A DNA stretch of 62,469 bases from a virus (IMGVR_UViG_3300035101_000006:1-62469); one strand, 5' to 3'; shown: positions 1 through 62,469, counted from the first letter of the stretch. A program made the numbers and translations. Notes: a model not told the origin generated them from the letters alone.

Positions 1-161
1 CGCTGGGCGTTAGGCGGGTGAGTCTGGCCCCCGGTGGGGGTCAGCGAAGCCGCCTAACGCGCCGCGAGTTAAGCGGACTTCGGGTCATCCACTTCCCCCC
101 ACCAATCATCGACAAGTTTATAAAATGACGCCAAGCATTCTGAACATAAATCCGCATCACA
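1..161. repeat. Terminal direct repeat (copy 1), indicating a circular or circularly permuted assembly
   Basis: 1-161 equals 62309-62469 except T35 vs A62343. Confidence 0.95.
9..58. repeat. Cassette spacer hairpin H5 (= 62317-62366)
   Basis: GTTAGGCGG-gtgagt-CTGGCCCCC-ggw-GGGGGTCAG-cgaag-CCGCCTAAC. Confidence 0.9.
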
Positions 162-272
162 AAATATTGGCGCTTTCTTAGTCCGTAAAGCTAATTTCAA
201 GTCAAGTAACGAGAGAAAGGGATATGTATTCTCAATTTCATTTTTGCATCTATCGCATACTGTTATCTTCAT
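69..272 (-). CDS. Cassette ORF, small Cys-rich protein (CDRC...CSEC)
   Basis: 67 aa, AT-rich, purine-rich SD; stop TAA lies inside the CCGCTTAA repeat. Confidence 0.75.
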   Translation of the reverse strand: MKITVCDRCKNEIENTYPFLSLLDLKLALRTKKAPIFCDADLCSECLASFYKLVDDWWGEVDDPKSA

Positions 273-320
273 CTTGCCCCTTTTCTAATTCCAGACTAGC
301 AGTTCCGCTTCAATGAGCAG

Positions 321-530
321 TTATGCGTCCGAAGCGGTTGAGTCGGCTTCGTGTTGGTTGTTGGCGTCGTCGCTGGCTGCACTACTGGCGGCGATATCGT
401 TTAGCACAGCCTGAACGCCATCAATTCCTAGCAGCTCGGTGAGGTTATAAATCAAGTGATAGCACGGTTGAGAGTAAAGCAATATATCTTTTTCTCTCGA
501 TTCTTTTACCATTTCTGCTTCTGTTTTCAT
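321..530 (-). CDS. Cassette ORF, hypothetical protein
   Basis: MKTEAEMVKES start after AGGAGG; stop lies inside GCATAAC. Confidence 0.7.
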   Translation of the reverse strand: MKTEAEMVKESREKDILLYSQPCYHLIYNLTELLGIDGVQAVLNDIAASSAASDDANNQHEADSTASDA

Positions 531-593
531 TCTAGCCGCCTCCTGGCTATTTGATCTAGTAGAGCAAGGATGCCTGCTCATTGCTCGCGGCGC

Positions 594-645
594 GTTATGC
601 GTCCGAGCCTTCCTCCCGAAGGGAGTGAGAGCGAGGACGCATAAC
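594..645. repeat. Cassette spacer hairpin H6
   Basis: GTTATGCGTCC-gagccttc-CTCCC-gaa-GGGAG-tgagagcga-GGACGCATAAC. Confidence 0.9.
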
Positions 646-684
646 TATTATTATGCTGCCCACGTCCACATATACGGCCCTGCA

Positions 685-3495: not shown

Positions 3496-3995
3496 TCCTT
3501 TGCTCCTAGCCCCGCTTGGGGCAGTTCTGGCCCGGGCATCTCGTCCCATTCGCGCCCATCCAGCAGGCGACCGGCGGCTTTCTTGCCGATGAATTGTCCT
3601 GTCTCAGAATCGCGTTCTGGTAGATGTAACTTATTGTGTTCCTCTTTGGTCATACGTTGTAGATTTTCCCATCGGTTATCGGTTTTGTCTCCATTGATAT
3701 GGTGTAGAACCTCACCTTGCAAGAGCGAGTCGCCAGCAGAGACCCAAACCAGCGTATGCTCATAGGCGTAACCATTGGAATCTGCCAGCGGATGTGATTT
3801 GCCGACGCGAATTTTCACATAGCCACCATCGGCTATCATTCTGCCGTCATTCCAGCGGTAATGCATTGAACTATTTACGTGGTTATTATGCAATCCGCGG
3901 CCATCTGGAACATCCATAATATCACACCCAAGTTCTTCGGCTCTCTTTTTGCGACGGTAATATGTCGTCCTGCTAAACGGGTAACCTTTATACAT
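3492..3995 (-). CDS. HNH endonuclease
   Basis: GYAYEHTLV...LHHINGDKTDNRWENLQ...EHNKLH. Confidence 0.9.
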   Translation of the reverse strand: MYKGYPFSRTTYYRRKKRAEELGCDIMDVPDGRGLHNNHVNSSMHYRWNDGRMIADGGYVKIRVGKSHPLADSNGYAYEHTLVWVSAGDSLLQGEVLHHINGDKTDNRWENLQRMTKEEHNKLHLPERDSETGQFIGKKAAGRLLDGREWDEMPGPELPQAGLGAKE

Positions 3996-7676: not shown

Positions 7677-7703
7677 ATCTCCCCTTTTCCCACCAAGACA
7701 CGA

Positions 7704-7844
7704 AACCGCCCGAGACGGTCAAGCTCGTTGAGGACAAGCGATGACACAGGGTCTCGGGCGGTTGCCTATTTTGGTAGTTTATCTCCTGTATCATCATTGC
7801 TTGTCCTCAAGAAATATCTTATCACACAACTGCGTCCTTGTCAA
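7704..7844 (-). promoter_or_regulatory. Sigma70 promoter plus attenuator-like structured leader
   Basis: TTGACA(7844)-17-TAAGAT(7821); 13-bp stem 7704-7716/7751-7763; loop 7728-7744 is complementary to 7794-7810. Confidence 0.7.
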
Positions 7845-8660: not shown

Positions 8661-9296
8661 CTAGTCATTTGCCCACCTCCGCGCCGTTGATGTTGGGACC
8701 GGCGCATATCCGTGCTCACTGAGTAATCGCTGGACGCCATCGGCGTTCAGTCCATCGCCACCGCCGTTCAGTCCGGCGCGGATTTTTCGCCATTGGTGAA
8801 TATCGGCTTTCTTTTGGCGCTCATTGGTTTCTGGCTGGTGTTCGCCGGTGTCGATTTGTAAACCGATGGCGCTCATAATGGCGTCACCGACGCCAACCTT
8901 GCGACCCCTGGCGCTCAATGCGTCCACTTGGCGCGCCAAGATGGACAGCAGCCCAACAATCAGCGTGGGAAAGATTGCGTACAACCACGCGAATTTATTG
9001 GTATAGTCCCACGGTCTGACATAGGCCACGTTTAGCCCGCCATCAGTCAGCACGAAAATGAAGTAGCAAGCCCAGGCCGCTCGGCGCGTTGTGGCCCAAT
9101 GCGTGAACCAGGCGCACACAGCGATACCAAAGTCCAGGCCGAGCGCGTAGACGTAGCCCAGCCACTCGAACCCGATCGGCTCAAAGCCACCGGTGAAGGC
9201 GGCGACGTGGACAATGGGCACAACGGTGAAGATTGCCACGAGTAGCCAGATCGCAGCCTTGCGCCAATCAATGAGTTGCACCTTTGTTCGTTTCAA
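8661..9296 (-). CDS. Multi-TM protein with C-terminal HTH-like end (DUF2637-like)
   Basis: Four TM segments, then ...STARRW; start codon uncertain. Confidence 0.55.
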   Translation of the reverse strand: MKRTKVQLIDWRKAAIWLLVAIFTVVPIVHVAAFTGGFEPIGFEWLGYVYALGLDFGIAVCAWFTHWATTRRAAWACYFIFVLTDGGLNVAYVRPWDYTNKFAWLYAIFPTLIVGLLSILARQVDALSARGRKVGVGDAIMSAIGLQIDTGEHQPETNERQKKADIHQWRKIRAGLNGGGDGLNADGVQRLLSEHGYAPVPTSTARRWAND

Positions 9297-10114
9297 TGGT
9301 CTATCTCCTTTGGTCGCCAATTCCAAACGGATTCACATCCAGACACATCAGGTAAATACTTTCCATCAATCTTGTCCGGGCGCACATATTTGACTAGAAA
9401 GTCAACAATCCGCTCGCGCTTCCCGCTATGACGATCTATCAACTTGTCTCGTTCTACTCGCCATACTGCGCCTTCGACTGGTTCCATAGCGCCATAATGC
9501 CCATAGAATCCTGGTAGAACTGGCTCAAGTTTCATCATTGCAATCTCGATTGAAAGCGGATCGCCCCGGTGCAACAGCGGTGGGATAGCGAGGCCAATCC
9601 CACTCGTTCGCTCTCGGAACACATCATAAGGAAAACGGTTATCATCCACCATCAAATCAAAGGCAACAAACGGATCACGCGGCCCCAAGTTATACCGCGT
9701 GCCGTGGGCCTGTGCTAGCCATTCTCCCACGATCCGCTCGCCATCTCGCAAGATGGTCATAAATCGCTCATAATTGAATGGCTCAAACACCCAGGCGTGG
9801 AAAAGTTTGTGCTGTTCCCACGGCGACGAAATGGCAGGGTATCCGGCACGGCCTAATGGAAATAACGCATCACCTATTCGCGCAATGCCGACATTTGAGC
9901 CGTCTAGTTTTTCTTGCACTATAATTTCATCGTGTTTGTCTCGCGCTTTTTCAGTGGCAATCCTCTTTTGGCCTTCGTGACATTTGTGATCTCCTGGCCC
10001 TATGCGACTACCTGGAAGATGCGGTATATGACCATAGTTTTTTCGCCCTAGTGGTTTTTCTATCATCTCTTTTCCTTTCAAGTCTACATAAGCTATGTAG
10101 TCAGTAGCTACCAC
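9293..10114 (-). CDS. RNA ligase family nucleotidyltransferase
   Basis: EKLDGSN, GEW, AFD, EGAVWR, KYVR motifs. Confidence 0.85.
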   Translation of the reverse strand: MVATDYIAYVDLKGKEMIEKPLGRKNYGHIPHLPGSRIGPGDHKCHEGQKRIATEKARDKHDEIIVQEKLDGSNVGIARIGDALFPLGRAGYPAISSPWEQHKLFHAWVFEPFNYERFMTILRDGERIVGEWLAQAHGTRYNLGPRDPFVAFDLMVDDNRFPYDVFRERTSGIGLAIPPLLHRGDPLSIEIAMMKLEPVLPGFYGHYGAMEPVEGAVWRVERDKLIDRHSGKRERIVDFLVKYVRPDKIDGKYLPDVSGCESVWNWRPKEIDH

Positions 10115-16092: not shown

Positions 16093-16291
16093 CCCCCTCG
16101 CTCCTTTCTGCCCCTGCCCCGTCGCCGTCGCTGGGGGCGCGGCGCTGCGCTACCTTATCATTGACGGGATTAAGATAGCCTAGTTTGTCCAGCGCATTCA
16201 CAACGTTGTAAACCAGACGCTTTGATTTCCTGCGCTGCATATATTCCTCAACCTCGTTGGTTATCCTGAATAGGTCTACTGGATGCATCAC
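16085..16291 (-). CDS. Hypothetical protein
   Basis: 68 aa, coupled. Confidence 0.5.
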   Translation of the reverse strand: MMHPVDLFRITNEVEEYMQRRKSKRLVYNVVNALDKLGYLNPVNDKVAQRRAPSDGDGAGAERSEGDE

Positions 16292-17025
16292 TCCTCCTTG
16301 TCCCCGTCGATGGGGGCGGGTGGGGCGGTGCGCCCGCTTTGCACACTGTGTGTCAGCGGACCGCCCACATTTTCAAAGCGTTTGCCGCGACAAATCAAAC
16401 TGATAGCGGATTCAGTGTATCCGTAATCATTGGCGATACTCAATAGAGTTTCACCGCCTGCCCGACGAGTCCTAATTTCTATCACTTGCTCGGGGGAAAG
16501 TCGCCGTCCGGGTATAAGCGGGCCGCCCGCATTCTTATGACAATAGCCCCTGCAAATAGCTCTTACGTGGCTTTTTGACATTCCATATTCATCTGCCAGG
16601 GTTGCCATTGTAGCGCCCCTGTTTGCCTTGTGCCTAATTTGCCGTACCCGGCGGCGTGTAAGTGCCTCCTTATCTTCTAAGTTTCCCTGGTGAGTGTCGT
16701 ATCGGAGGTTGTCAAGGCGGTTATTCCTGGGGTCGCTGTCATTGTGGCACGCCTCCATACCATCTGGTGGAGGGCCGACAAAGGCCAATAATACGAGGTT
16801 GTGAACACGTCGAGGGTATCGTACTCCATCTTTGCATAGCATCACAAAAAGATACGTCCCGCCCCCCAAACACTGGGATAGTATCTTTTGTGGTTTGTCC
16901 ATAATTTCCCACTGAGGCCCGGCGTCGCTTATTCCAGTGCATTTTTTATAGCTCCGCACTGTCCCAAAATTGCTTATATCATACCCAGGGAAACCCGGTA
17001 TGGGACGGTACTTTTCTTGCATCAC
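16288..17025 (-). CDS. NUMOD4-HNH homing endonuclease with two C-terminal HTH repeats
   Basis: YRPIPGFPGYDISNFGTVRS, VHNLVLLAF..CHNDSDPRNNRLDNL; two A..YG.S/T...ICRG repeats. Confidence 0.9.
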   Translation of the reverse strand: MMQEKYRPIPGFPGYDISNFGTVRSYKKCTGISDAGPQWEIMDKPQKILSQCLGGGTYLFVMLCKDGVRYPRRVHNLVLLAFVGPPPDGMEACHNDSDPRNNRLDNLRYDTHQGNLEDKEALTRRRVRQIRHKANRGATMATLADEYGMSKSHVRAICRGYCHKNAGGPLIPGRRLSPEQVIEIRTRRAGGETLLSIANDYGYTESAISLICRGKRFENVGGPLTHSVQSGRTAPPAPIDGDKEE

Positions 17026-20429: not shown

Positions 20430-23400
20430 CTATTGCCCCGCATCGACAGGTAGCGCGCTACGTGTTCGGTCTTGACAGAGTGCAGGGCAAACGGATCAGA
20501 ACGCCAGTTCGGACACACGATCAAATACAGGTCGTTTGTGTCCCAGTCATCTTCCGCGCCACCCGTCAGCGTTCCGGTTATTTCGTAGTCATACCCTATA
20601 GACGTAATGACCGCGCTTGAGCCGTCCGTCAGATTGTAAACGATCATATCCGGTTTGACACCTGAACGCCAGAAATTCGCGTATCCGTCTTGCAATGTTG
20701 GGCTATTGTTTGCCCCCGTGTGATAGCCCTTGCACACGCCGGCAGCAGACAGGAAAAACAACTGCTGGTCTGCGTTGGCCTGCAATATCGCCGGACTCAA
20801 GCCCACGCGCTCATATATGCTGCGGATATATGCGCTTGCGTCTGCCGTGCGCACTGTGGCGCGGATGCTGCGCTTGGGGTACGTCACGCTGTCGGCGTCC
20901 AAAGAATACCCATTTGATACACCGCTGTCGGTTTCAAATGCCGCGTCTACAAAGTCGCCAACCCATTCATCGACCGGGACCAGGCACAGGTCATACATCG
21001 TAACTTGCAAGTTGTATGTTGCCTCGGACGCAATTTGCACGATGATATTAAACTCATTAGGCAACTCGTCTATGTTAAACGAGCCTGATACCGGCAAAGA
21101 AATTCTGCCAAAGTCGAGCAGTTGAAAGTCCTTGTAATGCTCTCCGTTTGCGTCTAGCCCGGTAAAGTGGCGGTACTCTGTCACCTTATAGACGCCACCA
21201 GATCCAGTCTGGAACAGCAGGCGCACGCGCACACCATCCTCGTCACCTGCAGGGGCGGCTGCGGGTTCTTCCAGTTGCGCGCGCATAAAGACGTGGAATG
21301 TGCCGTAATAGTCGCGCGCGATAGATGGCCCAAGCGTGACGGTAGCCACGTCTGCGTATATGTCCAGCGAGCCAGTGGGGGGCGTCGTGTGGCGGCAAGC
21401 AATCCCTGCAGGCGCGCGCGGGTCTGCAATGGTCGTCGTCCCTGTGCCATCCAGGACAATAACGCCTGTTGGGTTCTGGCTGTATGATGTGGCAACCACG
21501 CCGTCCTCTGCCAAGTTGATAAAGCTGGTAAATCCATCTCCGCGCGAAACGCCGCGCAGCCCGGCGATGATGCGGTTGTCCAGCAAGTCAAGCTCGTCTA
21601 CCGTTTCGTATCCATCCTCGTCTGAGCGGTTGTGCGTCTCAATCCGCAAGAGCGCGGGAACATCGCCGGCCACTTGTGCGTCGTCTATATCTACATCTGG
21701 CCAGGTGACGGTGTATACATCGCGGTGTTGTTGAATTGGAGACTGTAGCCACGTTCCAACGGCCGTTACCCTGGCGCGCACCCAAAGCGCAGTGACGCCA
21801 TTCACCGCATCCGTTGCCCAGTCATCGGGCGGAACCCAGGAAACAGAATTGACGCCCTGCCTATCGAACGGATCAAGTGCCATTGTGCCATCTTGCACAT
21901 TCAGCGTGTTCCACGCCGCGCCGCCCTGCGAATACTCCCACACTATCGTGATGGTTGCCCCGTTTAACTCTTGCAATATATCGAAAACCAACGAGCAGAA
22001 CGGGCCAAACTCGGACACGTTTGACGCAATGCCAAAGTATACAATGTCGCCAGCGACGAACGGCGATGGCAGCAAAAAGAATGGAAGTGTCGCCGGGAAA
22101 TGGCTTGTATACGCCGCGACGGTGCTGTTATAGACAAGTACATTTGATAGCTGGGCAATGTTTTTTTTATTCGCCACAAAGACTTCATCCAGGCAGGTTG
22201 CATCGCGCCCCACGTCCGTTGATTGTGACAAGATGTATATCTGTCCAAGCGCGCCGAGGTAGGCGAGTCCGTTGCCGGAATAGTTACCCACCATCCCCTC
22301 GCCGGGCGGCGCGGCTATCGTGTATATCGCCTTCCAATCAATTCCATCAGATGACTCGTAGATATTGCCGCCGCTCCCGCTCATAATATAGCTGCCGCTG
22401 GCAAGCTGCTGGATGTCGTTACCATACACGACGCCAAATACCGTATCGTCTGGTGTGACGCGCGCCCAGTTGATACCGTCAGATGTACGGTATAGTCGGG
22501 GACCGTCTAGCGTGCCGACAAGCTCGGATGCGAATAGATCATCTCCTATCTCTTGAAATACTGTAATGTAACTGAGGTTGTCGGTGATGAACACCTTTGT
22601 CCAGGTCGTTCCGTCCGTGCTGCGCCAGATGCTCCCGACATCAGACCCACTGCCACTCGACGTGTAAAGCGCATCCTCCCACACAAATAGTGCAATGCAC
22701 CCACCAAGCGGCGTTGAGAATACGCGCGTCCAGGTCGTGCCGCCGTCACTGCTGCGAAAAACTCCGCCGGTGACCGGACCACGAACAGCAGCATATAGAT
22801 AGCCGCCAAAATATGCAAGGCCGTTTTGATCGGCAAAGCTCGCCGCTCCGGCTCCGGTTATATCGTTGTTTCTGAGCGCCCAGTTGTTACCATCGTCTAC
22901 GCTGCGCCAGCATTCGGGCAGCGTGGTCCCGGTATCTGTGCCGATCAGATAAATGGTTGACCCGCCAACTTCAAGCATAGCCTGGCAATTCACATTTGGG
23001 GCAGGTGGAGCAGCGCACGCTGCCCACGGGGCGGTGCCGTCCAGCGAGCGCCATACATTGCTGCTTGCCTCGCACGCCACAAGAACGCCGCTGGTTGTTT
23101 CTATGATGTCGTGGACCTGCCCGACCGGGTTGGCGTCGTGGATTGCAAATAGTTCCTCGTATCTCCAATCTTCCTGCGTGCCACTCGCCTGCACGCAGTT
23201 GCACTCCACATCATCTTCGTCTGTGTAGTCACAATCACAATCCCACACCGCTTCAGTGATAGCTCCATCGTTGCTATTGCCCGAACGGTCATAGGTCGTC
23301 GCGCCCGCGCCTTCATAGATGACTTGCAGAACGACGCCAGCGTCAATGTTCGGCAGTTCACAGCGCGGCTCTGGCGTGAAGTCGCCGTCGGCGGGGTCGT

Positions 23401-25234
23401 AGGGGATGTCGTCGTGTACGCGCACCCATCCGATGTCGCCGTCGAATGTTCCAGATGCCCCGGCGTTATTGCCGATTATCAAATCATCGCCATTGTCAAC
23501 ACTATAGTTTCCGATGCTTACCTGCTGTGTGGGATAAGATGCAACCCAAACACCGTCTATCGCTAGATAAATTGTACGATTTGCTGGCAGGCCGCCGCCC
23601 GCTTCATCATACGTCATCAGGATGTGATGCCACTCACCGTCGGCGGTAAACTCATCCAAGCCGCTTGACGATATAGCATCCTGTGTCGCACAATCAACGT
23701 ATGACAATATTCCAACAGCAGAATCCACCAAGAGATGAAATCCACGCGTTGCTAGTGCATCACTGCCCTTGATAACAATACGGCCCTGATTGCCTTCACC
23801 ATACCCGTCTGCCCGTATCCACGCCTCGGCCGCCATCGGTCCGTTTCCTGCTATCGCGTTGTCTGGTAGGTCATCAATGCTGACCGCTGCTGCGACCGTT
23901 ACAAGGCTTGTCTCTCCATTGAACTCCAAATAGTTCGGCCAACAAGGATACACCGTGTTTTCATAGAGGCAATCGCAACCCCAAAGGACGGTAGTCAGCG
24001 TGCCATCGTTGTTGTGGCCTGAGTAGTCGTCGGTTTGCACTCCGCAGCCAGGCGAGTGTCTTAGGAGTAGTTGCGTCCCGGTGCTAGGATCTGGCGGAGT
24101 GCATCGCGGGTCGGGCGTGAAGTCGCCGCCAGCGGGGTCGTAGCGGATTGAGTCAGAGACGCGAACCCAGCCAATATCGCCATCAAATGCATGTCCTCCG
24201 ACAGAGTGATCACCAATCAATAAGTTACCTGCGGCATCTGTTGAATAGTTCCCAATGCTCACCTGTTGGGTCGGATAACTGGCAACCCAAACCCCATCAA
24301 TGGCAAGATAGATGGTCCTCGCTGCCGGAGTGTCAGCACCAGTCTCATCATAGCACATTAAGACGTGATGCCACAAACCATCGGCGGTAAACTCATCCAA
24401 GCCGCTATATGAAATTGCGTTTTGTGCTGCACAAAGGACATATCCAGCGAGTCCCTGTACACTGTCTAGTTGTAGAATCCATCCCCCCCCACGCTTCGAT
24501 ACAATATAGCCTTGACCTGTTTCTCCATATCCATTAGCCCGTATCCACCCATCTGCGGTCAATTGCCCTCGCCCTGCAACTGCATTATCTGGTATGTCGT
24601 CAAGGCTGGCATCACTCCCGCAATTGACGACAGAATCCGCGCCGTCAAATGTCAGATACGACGGATCGCACCCCGATTCTGTCCAGGTGATTGATTCGCT
24701 CTTTTCCTCCGGGCACGGCTGCCCAGGTGCAACGCTGCGCCAGAACGGTTCGCGCTCGATAACCAATCGCCAATCCTCAAACGCCGCCTGTCCCAGTTTG
24801 TTCCAGAAATAGTCTTGATTGCTGTATGGGTAGTTGTCAGCCTGCGCCCGGTAGTCCTCGATGAGTGAATAGCGCGCATTCGTCTCGCCCAGCCCCTGCG
24901 CCTTGATCCACACCGGCCCCGGAGTCCACGCTGTTGGAGAATATGAAGCCGCTTTCTCCAAGAGGCGGCGCAGTTCCTGCGTCTCACGCACAAGCATATC
25001 AGGCTCGAAGCTGCGCGCCTGGATTTCAAATGTCTCCATCGCATTTGCACGCTTGCGCACGCGCAACTTGCGCCCGTCTGCAAGCGGGCTGTCTGACCAG
25101 GTGCCGTCTCCCTTTATCTCAGACACGGCAGGCGTCCAGTCCGTGGCGAAGAACCCACTATGCGTATTTAGCAAATCAACCGTTGTGGTCCCATCTGTTA
25201 TTTGCAGTATCTGAAAGGCGGCACATCTCTGCAT
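20426..25234 (-). CDS. Large distal tail / receptor-binding protein with two LamG domains and a BNR beta-propeller
   Basis: Follows the tape measure; duplicated LamG; repeated RSxDGxTW Asp-boxes. Confidence 0.8.
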   Translation of the reverse strand: MQRCAAFQILQITDGTTTVDLLNTHSGFFATDWTPAVSEIKGDGTWSDSPLADGRKLRVRKRANAMETFEIQARSFEPDMLVRETQELRRLLEKAASYSPTAWTPGPVWIKAQGLGETNARYSLIEDYRAQADNYPYSNQDYFWNKLGQAAFEDWRLVIEREPFWRSVAPGQPCPEEKSESITWTESGCDPSYLTFDGADSVVNCGSDASLDDIPDNAVAGRGQLTADGWIRANGYGETGQGYIVSKRGGGWILQLDSVQGLAGYVLCAAQNAISYSGLDEFTADGLWHHVLMCYDETGADTPAARTIYLAIDGVWVASYPTQQVSIGNYSTDAAGNLLIGDHSVGGHAFDGDIGWVRVSDSIRYDPAGGDFTPDPRCTPPDPSTGTQLLLRHSPGCGVQTDDYSGHNNDGTLTTVLWGCDCLYENTVYPCWPNYLEFNGETSLVTVAAAVSIDDLPDNAIAGNGPMAAEAWIRADGYGEGNQGRIVIKGSDALATRGFHLLVDSAVGILSYVDCATQDAISSSGLDEFTADGEWHHILMTYDEAGGGLPANRTIYLAIDGVWVASYPTQQVSIGNYSVDNGDDLIIGNNAGASGTFDGDIGWVRVHDDIPYDPADGDFTPEPRCELPNIDAGVVLQVIYEGAGATTYDRSGNSNDGAITEAVWDCDCDYTDEDDVECNCVQASGTQEDWRYEELFAIHDANPVGQVHDIIETTSGVLVACEASSNVWRSLDGTAPWAACAAPPAPNVNCQAMLEVGGSTIYLIGTDTGTTLPECWRSVDDGNNWALRNNDITGAGAASFADQNGLAYFGGYLYAAVRGPVTGGVFRSSDGGTTWTRVFSTPLGGCIALFVWEDALYTSSGSGSDVGSIWRSTDGTTWTKVFITDNLSYITVFQEIGDDLFASELVGTLDGPRLYRTSDGINWARVTPDDTVFGVVYGNDIQQLASGSYIMSGSGGNIYESSDGIDWKAIYTIAAPPGEGMVGNYSGNGLAYLGALGQIYILSQSTDVGRDATCLDEVFVANKKNIAQLSNVLVYNSTVAAYTSHFPATLPFFLLPSPFVAGDIVYFGIASNVSEFGPFCSLVFDILQELNGATITIVWEYSQGGAAWNTLNVQDGTMALDPFDRQGVNSVSWVPPDDWATDAVNGVTALWVRARVTAVGTWLQSPIQQHRDVYTVTWPDVDIDDAQVAGDVPALLRIETHNRSDEDGYETVDELDLLDNRIIAGLRGVSRGDGFTSFINLAEDGVVATSYSQNPTGVIVLDGTGTTTIADPRAPAGIACRHTTPPTGSLDIYADVATVTLGPSIARDYYGTFHVFMRAQLEEPAAAPAGDEDGVRVRLLFQTGSGGVYKVTEYRHFTGLDANGEHYKDFQLLDFGRISLPVSGSFNIDELPNEFNIIVQIASEATYNLQVTMYDLCLVPVDEWVGDFVDAAFETDSGVSNGYSLDADSVTYPKRSIRATVRTADASAYIRSIYERVGLSPAILQANADQQLFFLSAAGVCKGYHTGANNSPTLQDGYANFWRSGVKPDMIVYNLTDGSSAVITSIGYDYEITGTLTGGAEDDWDTNDLYLIVCPNWRSDPFALHSVKTEHVARYLSMRGNR

Positions 25235-25237
25235 CTG

Positions 25238-28200
25238 CTATACCCCCTGAAGCGCCTTGCGTACCGCGCGGGTGGCGATGATCTCCACCGTCGCCACGTC
25301 AATTGGCGTGTTGAAGTAGTTTGGCCCGACGTTTGCCGTTCCCTGATAGCTGCGCGAGTTGTCGGTTGCCGCAGGCTGCCCCATCACAGGCCGCGCAGTC
25401 GTCACAGGAAATGCAGTGCTTACATCCCTGGTTAGCTCGCGCATCTTTGCCGCCAAGTCCGGCAGCGCGCGTGTCGCCCCCGTAATGCCTATCTCAAGCG
25501 GCGACGGGCTGTGGCCGATGAATGGGGCGGCGGCGGCGGCGCCCGCGTCGAACGTTTGGGTAAATTCGTGCCACGCCTTTGCCGCCTCTAGCACAACGCG
25601 GGCGACGGTTGTCACGCCCTCGATAATGCCGCCCGACCTCCAAAATATGTCTGCGATTTGCTCAAGCGCCCATATAAGCCCGCTTTCAGAATCCCCGAGA
25701 TATTTTAGGAATAGGGCAAGCGCGCCATCCCCTGTGAGGTATTCTGCCAGCTTCCCGGCGAGCTTCCACAGTGCAGCATAAACACTTTCGGTATCGCCGC
25801 CGATGAGGTCGCGTACAAATTCAAGCGTCGGTTTCAATGTCTCGTTTAGCACAGAATCAAACTCTTTCACCGCGCTCGGCATATTCGTTCTAAACCACAG
25901 TTGAACGGTGCCCCCCATCATCCGCACCGCATCTGGAATACTTATACCAAATATCCGCTCGAACACACCGCCATAGTAATTCATATAGAATTGGAGCAGG
26001 CCGCCTTCTTCTTCAACCTTTTCGCGGGCTGTCTGAATGGAAGATTTGAAATTTTCCCACGATAGATTGTCTATGATCGTCTGTATGTCTGCAATCATTC
26101 TATCGAACTTGGCGACCATTCCCTCTACCGGGGCGCCTTCTTCAATCCCTCCGAATATCATCGTCTGTATTCTGCCAAATGCCTCGACCAGCGGCTTGAA
26201 AATGTCAGCAAACTTCGCCTTCAACTGTTCCTTCATCGCGTCAATGGCTTCGCCTATCTTGCTGCTGATGTCCCACTTGCCACCGGCCCCGACGCCAGTC
26301 ATAATCTCGTTAAGAGACTTTCCAACGGACGCGGCAACGCCAGCCGCCCCTTCTTTCGTTCCCTTGAACAACTGCGCGAGATGGTCTACCAACTGCCGTT
26401 GCAGCGCGACCTGTTCCTGTAAATCGCCCGTGTCCTGTGCGGCCGCCGCCTTTTCCTGTGCCGCCGCTGCCTTTTCCTGCTCTGCTGCGCGCACCTCTGC
26501 CAGCTTTGCATCCAGTTCCTGCTGGGTTGCTCCCTCTCGTAGAAGTTGGTTATATTCGTGGACGGATTTTGCAACCTTTGTCTGCGCCGACTCATATTTC
26601 CTGTTTGCGTCATCCATCGCCTTCGTCGCCTTGGCGAGTTCAAATTCTGCGCGCGCCAATTTTGCCACCTCGACGCCAAAGATGCCCGCGCTCTTTGCGA
26701 TGCGGTCAAAGAACGTCTCGCCAATTCCGCCGCCAGCAGCGATGTCGCCGATTAGCGCCTTTGATAGCCCCGTCATTGCCTTTGGAGAAAGGAAGTTGCC
26801 GAGGGCGCTTTGCACGGTCTTTAGCACAGAGAAGTCGGCATCTGTGAACCCGCGCAAGTATTCAGCCATCGTCGCCGCGCCCCACTTGTCAATGTTCGGG
26901 GCGATGCGCGGTGGGGATCCGGGCGCCATCCAGAACGACAGCAGGCCACTGACGACGTTGGCCATTGCGTCGATTGCGTCGTAGGCTGCTGATACCATCC
27001 CCTCTGCCAGTGCAGCCACGATCTCAGCGCCCCACCGGAACATATCTTCGGCCGTTTGTCCTAATCCCCGGTTAAGCTCGTTTTCAATCCCCATAAGCAT
27101 CTTTGCCGTTTCTGCTATCGCCTTGCCGGGATTGAAAACGAGCATAAATATATTGCCAAGTTGCTTGTCAATGATGCTGATGATTGCCGGGAGGTTTGCG
27201 CTGATGTAGTTGAGTGCTGCTGAGAATCCATCGGCAACCAGGGAGGCGGCGGCACCAAGTTTGACGAGGATGGGATACAACGCGCCGCCCTCTTTCGTCG
27301 CTTCAGTCAGGGCATTGACGAACCCGCGAATGCCACTGCTGCTGTCGCCGATGACGGCAGAGAACGCGGGCAAGAACGCCTCCATCAACCCCGCCTTTAA
27401 CTCTGGCAACTCGCGCCCGGTGAATGAACGCAGGCGCTTTGTGGGAGACATCATCGCCGCGTCGTACACATCCATTATGTTCGCTGACTGTTCCAGAATG
27501 GCATTGACGCGCGCCTGCACTTCCTCCTGCTGCGTTAGCGCCTTAACATCTTTATTGAGTGAGTCTGCGTGCGTCTTTAGTGCCTTTTGATTGTCTACGG
27601 TGATTTGAAGCGCGGTAAGGCGCGCCGTGTTGCCCGTGACTATGGCGTCTGTAAGGCGCTCCATCGTTTCTGTTGAGTCCTCGTCGATGAGGATGCCCGT
27701 CGCCTGTGCAACTTTCACGAGGTCGCCGGCTTGTGCTAAGTCAATCTGGTTCCTTGCAAACTTCGCCGCCGCCTCGGCTGCTTTGTCGTAGCGTATTCCG
27801 GCCTCGTTTATCGTGTCTATGCCATCGCGGATCTCCTGCTCGCTCAACCCCATCGCGCGCCCGATGGCAAGCGCGGCCAGTCCTGCTTCCTCGAACCGCC
27901 CAGCCAGCATCAGCCCTTCTTGGCCGACTTGGACAAGAGTGGAGATGAATTGCTTGGCGAGATTTATTGCGCCCTGCATTACCTTTTGCAACGCCGTAAT
28001 CGCCGCCATTGCAACGCCCGCAGCAGCGCCAAGTGCAATTCCACCAGCAGCAGCGCCGCTTCCCCCTAATACGCTTGCCAATTTCAGAAATTCATTTGTG
28101 GTTCCTGCGACAAATCGACCGGTTTCTGTGTCTCTAAATCTTCCGGTCGTCTTATCATATTGAATTTCTGCCTTGCGCATATCAGACAGGAATTTTGCAA

Positions 28201-50068: not shown

Positions 50069-50296
50069 CTATGCAATGCACACAACTAGGTTATCCAACT
50101 CCCTATTATATCCGCACTGAAACTCAATACCAGAATGGGTCACAAACGTTTCAAGGCCGATCATTGGTTGCACAAAGTCTACGCGCGTATTTTCAGTTAT
50201 AGGCCATCCACGTAACTTGGCAAATAGAACAGCGCAATCAATCAGGTGTTCTGTGCTCTTTGCAAATGCCATCATCCTCCCCCTAGTAGCTCCCAA
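50069..50296 (-). CDS. Hypothetical protein
   Basis: About 70 aa. Confidence 0.5.
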   Translation of the reverse strand: MGATRGRMMAFAKSTEHLIDCAVLFAKLRGWPITENTRVDFVQPMIGLETFVTHSGIEFQCGYNRELDNLVVCIA

Positions 50297-51578
50297 TCCT
50301 CACCGGGTTATACACCACGCGCCCCTGCTCCTGCTCTGTGTGCGTCAGCCAGGCGACGGCATAGCGCAGGCTGTCCAAGCAGTGAAACTTTTCTTTGTTC
50401 TCTACCTCGTCTTGGAACTCGCCCGTTCGCTTGTTCAGCTTGCGGTGGTATTCCTCGATCTCGCTCAGTAGTTGCTTGCAGGTGTCGTGTATGACCAGGC
50501 TGTCGGTTTGCAGCAAGTCCAGCACCCGGTCAATGCCCACCCAAAAGTCGGCTATTGGCGGGTCTACAACCGGGATGCCGGCCGCCTGGAACTCCACGCG
50601 CCAGTCGCGTTCTGACTTTGCCCCACACACCCAGGCGAACACCGGCCCTCCTTGCGTCTCTGATAACACCTTCTCCGCAAAGTGCTGCACCGTCGAACCG
50701 AACGGCAGCACCAACTCCCTGTAAACGTGCAGCCTGTTACCTTGCGGATCGTAGGCCAGCCACAGCGCCGCCCGCTTTGCGCCGGCCGGGTCGATGCCCA
50801 CCACTCGCGGCCACTGTCGCGGTATCTCGAACGCAGCTGCGAGGTGCTTTCCGTACTCGCCATCTTCCCGCAGGCCGTCGAAGTGCTCGCCATAGATGCT
50901 GCCCTCCGGTGCTGCCCACAGGCCGTATCTGTACCGCTTCTTCAGCGCCCCCGTCAGCCTGTCCAGCGCCCCTATGCGCTGCTTGCCCTGCTCCGTGATT
51001 TCGCCCGTTCTCTGGTCGTACAGGTCGGGGTTGTCCCTGTGTCTTGAATTGAACAGCGTCAACAGGCCGGATTTCGCCCGCTGGCGTATCCAGTGCGACG
51101 GGGGGCCAGGGTTGCAATCGCCGATCACCTGCGGGTGCGGTATGTGCCCCGCGCGGCCGGTCGCCCGCATCGTCAGCATTTGCCAGTCCATCACAGTCAA
51201 CTCTTCGGCCTGGTTGACGTAGACGCCATCGAACTGGCCTGATAGCACCTTGGTTGACTTGTCCATCCCCGCAACCCACACGCGGGAACCGTTGGGGTAG
51301 TCATACCATTGCGCCTTCTCGCCACCGTATATTGTGACGGTCGGGTCTATTATCTCATTCTGCCAGGTTTGCAGTACTGTTGAGTACGTGTCGGTGAGTT
51401 GTTTACGTGCTATGACAAAGCTGGCGTCGTCGTACTTGTGCGCCAGCCAATGGAATTTCGTTAAAAACGTGATCGTCTTGCCGGTGTCTGCCGGCCCCGC
51501 CAGTATGACTTCCTGGTCGTGGCAGAGGTAGGCGCGGCGGTTCTCGCCGTAGACGATGGGAAGGTGTATTTTCTCAAT
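50283..51578 (-). CDS. terL: Terminase large subunit (non-canonical start)
   Basis: Frame extends ~100 codons upstream of the track ORF and contains Walker A GPADTGKT; NQAEE, GDCNP, GIDP, HCLDSLRY. Confidence 0.9.
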   Translation of the reverse strand: MEKIHLPIVYGENRRAYLCHDQEVILAGPADTGKTITFLTKFHWLAHKYDDASFVIARKQLTDTYSTVLQTWQNEIIDPTVTIYGGEKAQWYDYPNGSRVWVAGMDKSTKVLSGQFDGVYVNQAEELTVMDWQMLTMRATGRAGHIPHPQVIGDCNPGPPSHWIRQRAKSGLLTLFNSRHRDNPDLYDQRTGEITEQGKQRIGALDRLTGALKKRYRYGLWAAPEGSIYGEHFDGLREDGEYGKHLAAAFEIPRQWPRVVGIDPAGAKRAALWLAYDPQGNRLHVYRELVLPFGSTVQHFAEKVLSETQGGPVFAWVCGAKSERDWRVEFQAAGIPVVDPPIADFWVGIDRVLDLLQTDSLVIHDTCKQLLSEIEEYHRKLNKRTGEFQDEVENKEKFHCLDSLRYAVAWLTHTEQEQGRVVYNPVRIGSY

Positions 51579-59411: not shown

Positions 59412-59549
59412 CCTATTCACCCCAGCCCCCCGGCGGCTGCGGCGGCTGCCCTGCGTGGCTGCGGCGCTGGCGGCGGGCTTCAATCATTGCGGTTTTTATG
59501 TCCATCTAATTGCCTTTTGTGGGAGCGAGCAGCCCGAACGCGCCGCGAG

Positions 59550-59804
59550 TTAAGCGGAGGGTGGGTTTTTCGTTTCATCTTCTATTGGCTCAAACGCTTG
59601 TTCAAAATCATAATCTCGCCAAATATGTTTCTCTCCAAGTGGGCCAGTTACTATCCAATCACCACGGCCCACGATTAGCCTGCCTTGATCTGTCTCAACA
59701 ACGCCATATACCCCGCCCGCCCTCTCAGTAACATCTTTAGTAGATTTCCCTGGATACCACTGTTCTGCCTCTACTATCACTGGATTTTTTCTAAACTTTG
59801 GCAT
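59550..59804 (-). CDS. Cassette ORF, conserved phage protein (MPKFRK.PV..EA.QW type)
   Basis: FRKNPVIVEAEQW...GDWIVTG..GE......FEQAFE; AAGGAG SD. Confidence 0.8.
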   Translation of the reverse strand: MPKFRKNPVIVEAEQWYPGKSTKDVTERAGGVYGVVETDQGRLIVGRGDWIVTGPLGEKHIWRDYDFEQAFEPIEDETKNPPSA

Positions 59805-59859
59805 TTGCACGCTCTCCTTGTGAACTAGTCCCGTCCAACCCTTCCGCTTCAATGAGCAG

Positions 59860-60066
59860 TTATGCGTCCGAAGCGGTTGAGTCGGCTTCGTGCTGGTTGT
59901 TGGCGTCGTCGTCTGATTCAGCGGGGCGGCGGATAATGTGGTCGAATGCCCCGGCTTTGATAAGTTCTATAACACATTTTAGGCAAAGACCGTTTGGCAC
60001 AGTGCCTTTTTCACCACATCGCCTGCACTTCTTATCAAGATTAATGTCGATTGTTGCTGTTGGCAT
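59860..60066 (-). CDS. Cassette ORF, small zinc-finger protein
   Basis: CRRC...CLKC; stop lies inside GCATAAC. Confidence 0.7.
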   Translation of the reverse strand: MPTATIDINLDKKCRRCGEKGTVPNGLCLKCVIELIKAGAFDHIIRRPAESDDDANNQHEADSTASDA

Positions 60067-60132
60067 AATTAGCCGCCTTTCTGCTCACTGGTCAAGTAGA
60101 GCGAAACCGTCCTGCTCATTTAACTCGCGCCC

Positions 60133-60181
60133 ATTCGACGGGTGAGCCTCCCTCCGAAGGATGGGAGCGAAGCCGTCGAAC
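60133..60181. repeat. Cassette spacer hairpin H1
   Basis: aTTCGACGG-gtgagc-CTCCC..GGGAG-cgaag-CCGTCGAAC. Confidence 0.9.
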
Positions 60182-60190
60182 GTGGGCGAG

Positions 60191-60556
60191 TTAAGCCGCC
60201 CTATGGGTTTGCTTTCGCTCGAATCTATGGCACGCATCATCTGCATCCGTTTCTATTTTCCATAAATAACAATGCCCAAATCTATGATTGAGTTTGTTCA
60301 TTTTCCAATTGACGCAATCGCGGCACCGTAGCTTCAGCCCAAGACTAATAGGGTCGGCTTCAATGAGTTGTTCGGGGCGCGAGCGTGTAGCGTCGGTTCC
60401 CGATGGCTCTGGACTGCCTTCTGGCGTGGTTAAGGCGTTCTGCAAATCCGAGTTCATATCTGCCAGTGTAAGCACTAGGTGTGCAAGATCACTTTTCGAT
60501 TTGTTCATCAGAGAGTTATAGGTTAAATCTGTCGTTACTACGATGGTTGTTCCCAT
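60191..60556 (-). CDS. Cassette ORF, hypothetical with C-terminal Cys cluster
   Basis: CRDCVNW...GHC...C; stop lies in GGCTTAA. Confidence 0.7.
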   Translation of the reverse strand: MGTTIVVTTDLTYNSLMNKSKSDLAHLVLTLADMNSDLQNALTTPEGSPEPSGTDATRSRPEQLIEADPISLGLKLRCRDCVNWKMNKLNHRFGHCYLWKIETDADDACHRFERKQTHRAA

Positions 60557-60643
60557 TATCTTCACCTTTCCCTTTCAAGCCGTTCTCTGCTTCAGACTTA
60601 GAGCGTCCCCGATGACAACTCATTGAAGTGTTAACTCGCCCAC

Positions 60644-60690
60644 GTTCGGGTCAAGCGAGCTGGCCCAGAGGGTCAGCGAGCGACCCGAAC
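60644..60690. repeat. Cassette spacer hairpin H2
   Basis: GTTCGGGTC-aagcgag-CTGGCCC-aga-GGGTCAG-cgagc-GACCCGAAC. Confidence 0.9.
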
Positions 60691-60716
60691 GGCGCGGAGA
60701 TAAGCGGACTTGCGGG

Positions 60717-61088
60717 TTAGGCGCGCTCGTGATACTGACACGTTTCTCCAATCTTTTTTATGCCGTCATATATGCCGCATTGACCATGGTTGTTAGTGTG
60801 CGGCACAACAAGCCAGTATTCACAATCTGGCCCGCATCTCAAGATAGCATCATTAGCAAGTTCCGCTTCATTGACTGGTTCGCCCTCTGAGCGGATTTGC
60901 TGCTTCGTGTCGCTGGGGGCGTCATCTGGGGCTGCATCGTGGGCGGCGTATTTTGCCTTAATGGTCGTGTCCCACAAATTATACCCAAGCCAATCCCCAA
61001 CCCGCGAGGCCGCTTTTCTCAGCCTCTCAAGCGTCATCATATCGAGATAAATAAACCCAACTGCCATAACTTCAAATTTCTTGTCCAT
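60717..61088 (-). CDS. Cassette ORF, hypothetical with C-terminal Cys cluster
   Basis: MDKKFEV...CGPDCEYW...C...C. Confidence 0.7.
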   Translation of the reverse strand: MDKKFEVMAVGFIYLDMMTLERLRKAASRVGDWLGYNLWDTTIKAKYAAHDAAPDDAPSDTKQQIRSEGEPVNEAELANDAILRCGPDCEYWLVVPHTNNHGQCGIYDGIKKIGETCQYHERA

Positions 61089-61153
61089 TCTAGCCGCCTT
61101 TCTGTTCTCAAATCCTGATAAGTTCAGAGGGTCAGTCAATGTATCTCCGCGCC

Positions 61154-61205
61154 GTTCGCCCTCTGAGCCTCCCTTCGTACCCGAACGGGAGCGAAGAGGG
61201 CGAAC
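61154..61205. repeat. Cassette spacer hairpin H3
   Basis: GTTCGCCCTCT-gagc-CTCCC..GGGAG-cga-AGAGGGCGAAC. Confidence 0.9.
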
Positions 61206-61330
61206 GGGCCGGAGATATGCTGCGCGTGTGTAGGTGCGTTTGCTACCACCGTGCCCACCATCTCAAGTGCCATCCGTCCCATACCTCCATACTAGCGCAG
61301 CATCATTGACTGGTTATCCGCCCGAACGGG

Positions 61331-61585
61331 TCAGGCGGCTTCATCTTCTGCGCCAGAATCATCTTCACACGAGAGATCAGACAAGGCGACTTTTAGAGAT
61401 TGTAATGCTTCTATAGCATAGATGATTCCAGCAGCCCTGCCGTGCCAATGAACCGCAGATTTACCAGAACCCCATTGTTTCGAAAGTTCAGATTGTTTAA
61501 TGCTCTCGGCTGCTTCATCAAAAAGATGATCTAATCCCATAGTGCCTTTGTCTCTTAATGCCCTTAGTTTGTCCGTGAGTGTCAT
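61331..61585 (-). CDS. Cassette ORF, hypothetical
   Basis: AGGAGGT SD, 84 aa. Confidence 0.7.
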   Translation of the reverse strand: MTLTDKLRALRDKGTMGLDHLFDEAAESIKQSELSKQWGSGKSAVHWHGRAAGIIYAIEALQSLKVALSDLSCEDDSGAEDEAA

Positions 61586-61663
61586 TTTAATACCTCCTAG
61601 CCTTGCTCTTATTGAGCGGAGTCACGTTGAGAGAGAAGGATAACCTCAATGTATCTCCGGCCC

Positions 61664-61710
61664 GTTATCCGCGCCGAACCTCCCCCAGAGGGGGAGTGAG
61701 GGCGGATAAC
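61664..61710. repeat. Cassette spacer hairpin H4
   Basis: GTTATCCGC-gccgaac-CTCCCCC-aga-GGGGGAG-tgagg-GCGGATAAC. Confidence 0.9.
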
Positions 61711-61735
61711 GCCCAGCGAGTTAAGCGGACGCGGG

Positions 61736-61927
61736 TTAATCCACCCACCATCGGCTCGCATCTTCTGGCTTACCTTCTGAATCAATGCGAATAGTCCCTT
61801 TACAATCCGGGTACTCGGAACATCCCCAGAATGGCTCCCAATCCTGATTGGGTCTTGGCCGTCGAAGTACCATTTGCGCGCCACATTCGGGGCAGTAAGG
61901 TTTCGGTTCTGTTTGTATCCCGTGCAT
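61736..61927 (-). CDS. Cassette ORF, stand-alone topoisomerase-type C4 zinc finger
   Basis: CPECGAQMVLR...FWGCSEYPDCKG. Confidence 0.85.
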   Translation of the reverse strand: MHGIQTEPKPYCPECGAQMVLRRPRPNQDWEPFWGCSEYPDCKGTIRIDSEGKPEDASRWWVD

Positions 61928-61981
61928 TTTCTGACTCCTAGACTAGCGTTCCGCTTCAATGAGCAGTTAGGCGGCGAGCGC

Positions 61982-62242
61982 TTAAACGTCCTCACCGCTG
62001 TATTCAAGATCAAGGTCACATTCCAGGCCCGCAAGGCGTCTTTCTGCGCGTCTCTGGTGCCAATGAATGCACCGTTTGACAATAAAACCCCACAACTTTT
62101 TGGGATGATGGAACGGACGGAGAAGCCCCATATTGACGGCCCACTCTATGTCCCGATATGAGCCGAAATTCTGAGACCACATATGAAACATCCAACAACC
62201 GTATGCAAGCGCTACCTGTTCATCACTTACCTTGTTTCCCAT
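61982..62242 (-). CDS. Cassette ORF, hypothetical
   Basis: GGAGGT SD, MGNKVSDE. Confidence 0.65.
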   Translation of the reverse strand: MGNKVSDEQVALAYGCWMFHMWSQNFGSYRDIEWAVNMGLLRPFHHPKKLWGFIVKRCIHWHQRRAERRLAGLECDLDLEYSGEDV

Positions 62243-62308
62243 ATTAACCTCCAAGCCTTGCTCTCTGCCTCTAAATTCCAGTCAAGCGATGACGCCCTGC
62301 TCATTGCT

Positions 62309-62469
62309 CGCTGGGCGTTAGGCGGGTGAGTCTGGCCCCCGGAGGGGGTCAGCGAAGCCGCCTAACGCGCCGCGAGTTAAGCGGACTTCGGGTCATCCAC
62401 TTCCCCCCACCAATCATCGACAAGTTTATAAAATGACGCCAAGCATTCTGAACATAAATCCGCATCACA
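62309..62469. repeat. Terminal direct repeat (copy 2)
   Basis: Matches 1-161 with a single mismatch. Confidence 0.95.

Follow-up and report, generated by a model that had tools for sequence, protein, structure and literature searches.

What are the nested inverted repeats that enclose one small gene after another at both ends of the viral contig IMGVR_UViG_3300035101_000006: sites of cassette recombination, stems of a messenger RNA, or relics of gene duplication? The window analyzed here is the complete record, an IMG/VR virus of 62,469 bases that is labelled linear and 82% complete. On its minus strand, from position 645 down to 1 and, continuing, from 62308 down to 59519, lies an array of six tandem units set between hairpins of a single family, seven in number (H0 to H5 and a truncated H6). 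The answer that we cautiously favor is that the array consists of six integron-like gene cassettes without a recombinase gene, similar to the clusters of attC sites without an integrase (CALIN); recombination of these cassettes is what we infer from their anatomy.

The two parts of the array meet across the contig ends. Positions 1-161 repeat 62309-62469 with a single difference, which lies in a hairpin loop (T at 35, A at 62343), and a contig from the one public DNA run listed with this sequence (available as contigs; no RNA run was listed) bridges the join, leading from 62469 into the sequence after position 161. The genome probably closes on itself, at about 62.3 kb, despite the linear and 82% label. 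Given the end overlap and the bridging contig, the two end arrays are one array of about 3.4 kb, the unit order of which is confirmed by the contigs of the run; units 59-593 and 61711-62316 are therefore neighbours, a correction to the original prediction made for this locus.

Covarying hairpins and closing helices

The hairpins are 47-52 nucleotides (nt) long, start with GTT and end with AAC (AAT in H5), and consist of a basal stem of 9-11 bp, an internal loop in which TCGCT and GGCTC are conserved, and, at the apex, a short stem-loop. Both sides are changed in 8 of the 11 basal stem pairs, and the observed covariation score was reached by none of 500 column shuffles; sliding the register lowers the pairing from 90% to 37-52%. 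The invariant letters in these covarying hairpins are limited to the outer GTT (7/7) and AAC (5/6, with one AAT), and the fold z-scores range from -3.0 to -6.3. A covariance model built from the family detects seven copies in the 62 kb, all of them in the array (H1 is found twice, once per contig end), with the rest at the level of noise, and a plain search for GTT...AAC hairpins identifies one unrelated case outside the array, at 27080-27139.

The original prediction described a two-gene layout in which a hairpin ending in AAC is followed by a segment Z, two genes and a segment Z' that adjoins the GTT of the next hairpin. This order can be read directly in the unit at 61711-62316, and the same plan is found in all six units (Table 1). 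The predicted three-way fold and duplicated AAC core are likewise real features of the sequence: each unit contains three closing helices, which covary, Z/Z' enclosing the unit as a whole, helix A enclosing gene A, and helix B enclosing gene B. With AAC/GTT included, the outer helix comprises 13, 13, 15, 15 and 16 contiguous Watson-Crick pairs in units 1-5 and only 10 pairs, set off from the hairpin, in unit 6; helix A has 9, 9, 6, 9, 12 and 8 pairs, and helix B 9, 10, 9, 12, 12 and 13 pairs, in units 1-6, respectively. The versions of helix A include CAATGAGCA/TGCTCATTG, CATTGAC/GTCAATG and CTTCAATGAGTT/AACTCATTGAAG, and those of helix B AAGCGGA.../...TCCGCTT, ATGCTGCGC/GCGCAGCAT and AAGCCG.../...CGGCTT. 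After the first 6-7 pairs of helix B, the arm that corresponds to the R'' side of an attC site carries a single bulged A in five of the six units (unit 6 has a second bulged T), and beyond this base there are 2-6 further complementary pairs that differ between units and covary. Among the approximately 150 long-range pairs, there is not a single G-T (G-U) pair, and the helices are kept regardless of whether they are coding (units 4 and 5) or non-coding.

The pairing is specific for each unit. The 4-5 letters adjoining AAC/GTT are different in every unit; Z and Z' match perfectly within units and are mismatched across the hairpins, unit 6 excepted; and, unit 6 left aside, a left and a right flank taken from different units never form more than 2 contiguous pairs. 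The internal AAC, present in 6/6 units, is part of a sequence that repeats the right arm of the hairpin upstream of the same unit; this copy includes the GCTC box and immediately precedes the right strand of helix A. All three arm strings quoted previously, for units 61711-62316, 59-593 and 61206-61663, are present, and the arm copy matches its own hairpin over 13, 9, 9, 15 and 7 nt in units 1-5, with no more than 5 nt shared in the other non-cognate combinations. The claim that the duplicated cores are unit-specific thus holds for five units and breaks down in unit 6, where the match is 0 nt and the copy is that of the arm of unit 1's hairpin (H0). The remaining peculiarities of unit 6 point to the same partner: the left flank of unit 1 forms 10 pairs with the right flank of unit 6, which is identical to that of unit 1; unit 6's own left flank forms only 4 pairs with the right flank of either unit; and an 83-nt stretch around the end of its gene A is 92% identical to unit 1. 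Judging from this pattern, both misfits of unit 6, in the arm copy and in Z', could stem from one recombination event inside a cassette.

Table 1. Features of the array, in the order of the minus strand
Feature	Position	Strand	Details
Hairpin H0	594..645	-	GTT + 8-nt arm ... arm + AAC; first site; left flank not array-like
Unit 1	59..593	-	Z 584-593; helix A left 574-583; gene A 324-530; arm copy (J) 320-332; helix A right 311-319; helix B left 301-310; gene B 72-272; helix B right 71-79; Z' 59-68
Hairpin H1	62317..62366	-	Same element at 9-58, at the other contig end; one loop difference
Unit 2 (subject of the original prediction)	61711..62316	-	Z 62307-62316; helix A left CAATGAGCAG 62297-62306
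Unit 2, gene A	61985-62242	-	ATG at 62242; stop 61982-61984
Unit 2, arm copy	61966-61974	-	CCGCCTAAC
Unit 2, helix A right	61957-61965	-	TGCTCATTG
Unit 2, helix B left	61946-61956	-	AAGCGGA..., with bulged A
Unit 2, gene B	61736-61927	-	Top1-type zinc ribbon; also delimited as 61739-61927
Unit 2, helix B right	61723-61732	-	...TCCGCTT; then AA, Z' 61711-61720 and the GTT of the next hairpin
Hairpin H2	61664..61710	-	
Unit 3	61206..61663	-	Gene A 61334-61585; arm copy 61313-61321; helix B ATGCTGCGC/GCGCAGCAT
Hairpin H3	61154..61205	-	
Unit 4	60691..61153	-	Single open reading frame 60720-61088 through arm copy 60878-60892, helix A right and helix B left
Hairpin H4	60644..60690	-	
Unit 5	60182..60643	-	Single open reading frame 60194-60556 through arm copy 60370-60376; helix A 12 bp
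Hairpin H5	60133..60181	-	Terminal AAT instead of AAC
Unit 6 (chimera)	59540..60132	-	Gene A tail, arm copy (59859-59871) and Z' match unit 1
Hairpin H6 (truncated)	59519..59539	-	Left half only; array end

Two shorter sequence features accompany the array. The left flank of H0 (646-661, minus strand), GGGCAGCATAATAATA, resembles the pattern of helix B right and Z' of unit 3, although the genome offers no partner for it; this flank may serve as the side at which the array docks (attI-like). A (T/A)AACCC motif is conserved 3-6 nt before the right strand of helix B in 5/5 units with a B gene (e.g., 61733-61738 and 60714-60719), and in several units this motif supplies the stop codon of gene B.

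Similarity to attC sites and competing folds

Recognition of DNA by its fold and not by its sequence has its textbook example in the integron sites. Nivina et al. 2016 (PMC5027507) give AAC as the one conserved triplet of attC sites, together with spacers of 5-6 nt, a site length of 57-141 nt, and extrahelical bases on the R''-side arm. The local hairpins of the array carry GTT on the 5' arm, the polarity opposite to that of attC, and in themselves do not have AAC on the 5' arm and GTT on the 3' arm. The stretch from the internal arm copy to the next GTT, located 3' of gene A, does: AAC and GTT are each found in 6/6 units, and the succession of AAC box, unpaired spacer, bulged stem, loop, stem, spacer and GTT box represents the canonical order and orientation. 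The first bases of the unit are complementary to its own R'' box, the relation that defines the two ends of an integron cassette, over 7-15 nt in five of the six units, with the exception of unit 6, which looks recombinant, and the extrahelical base of the L'' arm corresponds to the bulged A in the same proportion of units. The likeness to integron cassettes and CALIN accordingly includes co-oriented small genes with an imperfect hairpin site after each of them, the extrahelical base of the inner stem, a variable loop, and the lack of an integrase gene nearby.

If the gene strand is taken as the top strand and the crossover is placed at the G|TT arm that follows each Z', a cassette would start with TT and the hairpin arm, and continue through the hairpin interior to the first copy of the complementary arm with AAC, which closes the local hairpin. 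Z, the left strand of helix A, the ribosome site and gene A would come next, followed by the second copy of the arm with AAC, which would be the true R'' box of the cassette, complementary to its first bases. The 9-nt spacer formed by the right strand of helix A, L'' (the left strand of helix B, with the bulged A), a terminal loop with gene B, L', a spacer of 11-13 nt (AA and Z') and the final G would complete the cassette. All covarying pairings fall inside one such G|TT-bounded cassette, and unrelated partners are joined only at the G|TT joints. The alternative of a crossover at the outer GCTTAAC/GTTAA boxes would give Z to the upstream unit, and is excluded by the match of Z and Z' within units together with their mismatch across the hairpins.

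Such an arrangement would bring the site and its own competitor into one molecule. The leader consists of an additional copy of the R'' arm and, behind it, 16-25 nt able to pair first with the 3' spacer (as Z/Z') and next with the 5' spacer (as helix A); it would compete for three elements of the attC-like fold and, by the energy figures below, would win. In single-stranded DNA, the open form would be an attC-like hairpin with the R box, open spacers, the L box with its extrahelical base, and the loop; in the closed form, the leader would pair with both spacer strands in a three-way junction while the R' arm is held by the local hairpin. The two folds use the same strands, in agreement with the predicted competition between them.

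Folding energies were obtained with nested models, which do not encompass pseudoknots and bound protein. When the local hairpin and the three-way junction were forced together in units 2-5, the fold was 3.3-6.9 kcal/mol (DNA parameters) or 1.5-8.0 kcal/mol (RNA parameters) above the optimum; forcing the GTT arm onto the distant arm copy cost 8.6-22.4 (DNA) or 9.0-28.4 kcal/mol (RNA), and forcing the open attC-like fold with unpaired spacers 16.4-30.2 (DNA) or 17.9-39.0 kcal/mol (RNA). For a 741-nt stretch with unit 2, the three-way junction is already part of the unconstrained optimum with DNA parameters; in the RNA optimum, the local hairpin is lengthened beyond the unit border, and helix A is kept in the centroid. 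Whole stretches have modest z-scores (-1.8 and -1.6), and 1 of 20 shuffles did equally well. Accordingly, of the two alternative partners proposed for the GTT arm, the local one lies in a fold 1.5-8 kcal/mol from the optimum and the distant one is 8.6-28.4 kcal/mol away, so that the possibility of only one plausible fold is realized by half. A free two-state conformational switch, as originally proposed, is not supported by these models; a switch driven by protein is conceivable. The distant pairing together with helix A makes a pseudoknot, beyond the scope of nested models, and the true cost of this combination may be lower.

Since stability favors the closed form, the site is probably kept shut by the leader until it is opened, which could be done by a recombinase or a single-strand binding protein, the recombinase coming from the host or from a co-infecting element. 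The duplicated arm would then determine whether the site is open or shut. Its proposed role in choosing which sub-module is excised does not fit the cassette logic, which puts the crossover at the GTT side, so that the duplicate would not pick the part that is cut out; no deletion between the two AAC copies is seen in the contigs of the public run. Protection of the sites by the duplicate, also suggested in the original prediction, is a live idea. Gene A lacks a stop codon in units 4 and 5, where an open reading frame (ORF) of 123 and 121 codons, respectively, continues in frame across the arm copy, the right strand of helix A and the left strand of helix B; translation would cross the 5' arm of the site and join A and B in one protein, so that, as far as the reading frames indicate, the 5' arm is a protein linker in these two units.

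In its most elaborate form, which we put forward as a rather doubtful proposal, the cassettes would be self-regulating: an in-cis R'' decoy and an "anti-spacer" leader would clamp the site, to be opened by a protein; the loop and the 5' arm of the site would be coding, with A and B apart or fused, a shuffling of domains at the DNA level at the core of recombination; and the spacing of 274 or 351 nt between the AAC triplets would be a physical ruler in the recombination complex. If true, the mobility of a cassette would be gated by the cassette itself, with genes inside the fold and strands of its own competing for it, and phages would mix small early proteins at such sites, whole or as halves, probably for host takeover or counter-defence. 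The array also represents a compact test set of six sites, one of them of ordinary size. Clusters of attC sites without an integrase are a kind of element that is already known, as indicated by Qi et al. 2023 (PMC9892861), who describe such clusters in 17 phage genomes and report that IntI1 recombined five of six tested sites. A gene in the loop of the site, a decoy arm in cis and a leader that closes the spacers into a three-way junction did not turn up among the papers listed by literature searches on attC three-way junctions and phage CALIN.

Several observations weigh against the cassette interpretation. The spacers, 9 nt and 11-13 nt in length compared to the usual 5-6 nt, pair with the leader and not with each other, and five of the six sites, at 201-333 nt with gene B as a whole ORF in the loop, exceed the range of 57-141 nt; the exception is the site of unit 3, with about 121 nt, where 107 nt separate the arm copy from the next GTT and any ORF has at most 45 codons. 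The R box pairing in the array spans only 3-7 bp. The leader, too, departs from attC, its second copy of the R'' arm producing a GTT...AAC hairpin of inverted polarity and its 16-25 nt the three-way junction. By the nested models, the open attC-like fold lies 16-39 kcal/mol over the optimum. No tyrosine recombinase, serine recombinase or Y1 transposase domain was detected in six frames of the 62-kb record; in particular, a PF00589 search of the six frames at E<=1 gave no match, with a control search that matched 14/14 genomes. In the contigs of the public run, there is no excised circle, deletion, or gain or loss of a cassette; no related array was found anywhere searched, and the crossover point is deduced solely from the internal logic of the units. 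Finally, the spacings of 274/276/351 and 510-511 nt are too regular for captured genes and fit tandem duplication better, and the helices lie on the transcribed strand, so that a role in RNA is possible.

Alternative explanations and the cargo genes

On the last point, each unit and each cistron could be closed in the mRNA by stems formed by its flanks, with the stems setting processing, stability or translation and the unit-specific letters preventing mispairing. This possibility, which we regard as unlikely, is compatible with the location of all helices on the gene strand, where, for every gene, they enclose both the ribosome site and the stop codon, with the higher scores of the hairpin model on this strand (49-64 bits vs 19-20 bits on the opposite one), and with some G-U pairs in the apical stems of the hairpins; the energy figures with RNA parameters, i.e., the helix A retained in the centroid and the proximity of the forced three-way fold to the optimum, are consistent with it as well. 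The phage also encodes an RNA ligase domain (PF09414, E 4.8e-16) in a 273-aa protein (9293-10114, minus strand), which could be relevant if the array stems act in RNA. The lack of G-U pairs in the long-range helices argues in the opposite direction, and so do the invariant GTT/AAC at the stem ends, for which there is no RNA rationale, and the duplicated arm, which would have no role. In units 4 and 5, cleavage within either of helices A and B would interrupt the sole ORF, and the helices, at 6-16 bp, are short for RNase III, which needs roughly 20 bp. An Rfam search yields 0 matches at the gathering score over the whole window, the array showing only chance microRNA-like hits (E>0.002). The known precedents are the processing stalks of rRNA operons and the RNase III sites of T7 early mRNA, in which flanks pair across genes and form nested stalks within a transcript; the array differs from these in having no wobble pairs in its long-range helices, shorter stems, conserved AAC/GTT ends and ORFs that run through the stems in two units. 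If the stems did act in RNA, the array would be a protein-coding parallel to the rRNA processing stalks.

The regular spacing raises the question of duplication. In units 1-6 (unwrapped 59859-62902), the hairpin AAC is separated from the internal one by 274, 351, 351, 276, 274 and 274 nt, and the hairpin-to-hairpin period is 585, 653, 510, 510 and 511 nt, the last three values covering H2 to H5. These three periods are split differently inside (351+159, 276+234 and 274+237), the gene bodies being unrelated, and leaders and genes unlike in both length and sequence.

The cargo itself consists of twelve gene parts in ten small, co-oriented ORFs, the A and B parts of units 4 and 5 each forming one ORF. 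Apart from one Top1-type zinc ribbon (PF01396, E 1.7e-11) and one match to phrog_419, these ORFs gave no match; CxxC pairs are present in several of the proteins, and the A proteins end in acidic tails. A comparison of the ten ORFs reveals clear likeness only between the tails of A1 and A6 and a weak one between A4B4 and A5B5 (24.7% over 73 aa); the DNA identity of the gene bodies is at the random level (23-31%) in 4/5 pairs and 0.45 for A1/A6, with their common tail. The B parts of units 4 and 5 have in common a Cys-rich motif, RCxxDC...GxC...C.H/Y.E.

The units could accordingly be old tandem duplicates of a two-part gene with a regulatory scaffold, in which genes were swapped by homologous recombination in the flanks, in the manner of the PeSL cassettes, and the repeats were homogenized by gene conversion or template switching, a site-specific recombinase taking no part. 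The non-coding scaffolds are indeed homologous in all six units, neighbouring units have flank types in common, and the recurring lengths (274/276/351 and 510/510/511 nt), the weak A4B4/A5B5 likeness and the recombinant nature of unit 6 with unit 1 are in line with such a history. In T4-type phages, the PeSL are conserved non-coding stem-loop modules between small non-essential genes of a variable region, and shuffling of these modules and mini-circles are documented (Arbiol et al. 2010, PMC2839356). The PeSL described there contain a sigma-70 promoter and a terminator and recombine by homology; neither signal stands out in the array, and its flanks are complementary across genes and unit-specific. 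Promoter and terminator signals in the array are not above those in shuffled sequence (2 sigma-70-like promoters vs 2.2 expected and 3 terminator-like structures vs 2.9 expected), none of them is located at the hairpins, and no T-run follows the hairpins. Furthermore, exchange in the flanks would break the perfect unit-specific complementarity of the 4-5 nt beside AAC/GTT, the random-level identity of most gene bodies does not suggest duplicates, and the attC-like order of boxes and the bulged base would be left unexplained. An origin by duplication and homologous exchange is quite improbable in our judgement.

The perfect terminal inverted repeats of 13-16 bp in five of the six units, and the repeats of 6-13 bp nested around the genes, might also suggest invertons, shufflon-like switches or the ends of nested transposon-like elements. 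We consider this extremely improbable: an invertase or transposase domain was not detected in the record, the genes are all in one orientation, there are no consistent target duplications at the borders of helix A, and no strand-changing joint is seen in the contigs examined, which drop rare forms. The pdif modules of Acinetobacter plasmids, where inversely oriented sites bracket genes and the recombinase acts in trans, are a related case; those are double-stranded Xer sites of 28 bp that are the same for all modules, and the array differs in its unit-specific folded sites.

Other candidate explanations were tried and rejected. If an inserted gene A element had caused a target-site duplication, both flanks of gene B would have to find their complement in the insert; there was no support for N4-type hairpin promoters, for IS200/IS605-type ends or for an Xer/dif-like core where A and B meet; and the bulges characteristic of archaeal bulge-helix-bulge splicing are absent.

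Searches for related arrays and the surrounding genome

Contigs of the public run contain other versions that diverge at 61671, inside H2, and at 62371, just before Z' of unit 1. In the former, the right hairpin arm and the leader of unit 3 are unchanged and the hairpin interior is different; in the latter, the same end of gene B1 is joined to a different Z' and hairpin. The array appears to be polymorphic in that sample, or else a related array is present. These variant junctions were counted in favor of cassettes, although they contain no clean cassette borders. Two apparent joints in contigs proved to be cross-matches of paralogous repeats, and a bin at 59696-59811 that lacks contig cover carries no meaning.

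The database searches covered the array and its neighbourhood. A blastn search with 59500-62469 against 50,697 phage records gave no match. In viral contigs, a 14-mer pattern produced at least 117 single hits, all attributable to chance by their context, a 16-base pattern 59 single hits, none with a hairpin, and an 18-base pattern none; a 22-base pattern gave none in metagenome contigs. Searches anchored on other genes were equally negative: the 387-aa neighbour gene has no match in viral contigs; homologues of the portal protein (45 proteins and, in a separate search, 39 viral loci) come with the hairpin in 0/39 loci and in 0/5 whole records (the five longest, 36-65 kb), and the portal profile finds none in genome contigs; and 22 metagenome loci of 1-20 kb with the PAPS-reductase neighbour have no hairpin. 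In one relative (L218), whose PAPS-reductase neighbour is 63% identical, ordinary compact genes lie upstream and there is no array. Gene B6 has one distant relative, which lacks comparable repeats. In Tetrasphaera phage TJE1, for which a CALIN has been reported, the hairpin model gave no match, and a comparable layout is absent from the first 12 kb.

The remainder of the genome is that of a tailed phage, with genes for a portal, a major head protein, a protease, a tape-measure-like protein, and pieces of the small and large terminase; a helicase-methylase, two HNH endonucleases, the RNA-ligase domain and a PAPS-reductase-like protein are also encoded, and nearly all genes of the genome are on the minus strand. 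The identity of the portal to any entry among the 50,697 phage records does not exceed 24%, so that the closest cultured relatives are remote. The match to the large terminase is restricted to the C-terminal part of a 332-aa ORF (50283-51281), and this gene may be split. The two endonucleases of the HNH_3 family are encoded by free-standing genes (3492-3995 and 16288-17025, minus strand), one of them with NUMOD4 and a helix-turn-helix. A repeat with a period of 741 nt (23361-23702 vs 24102-24443, 72-78% identical) within a 1602-aa ORF probably reflects domain repetition in a tail or fibre protein. At 7692-7810, where gene orientation switches, there are two inverted repeats, one nested in the other (25 nt at 84% and 17 nt at 94%); these and may represent a bidirectional signal or an origin.

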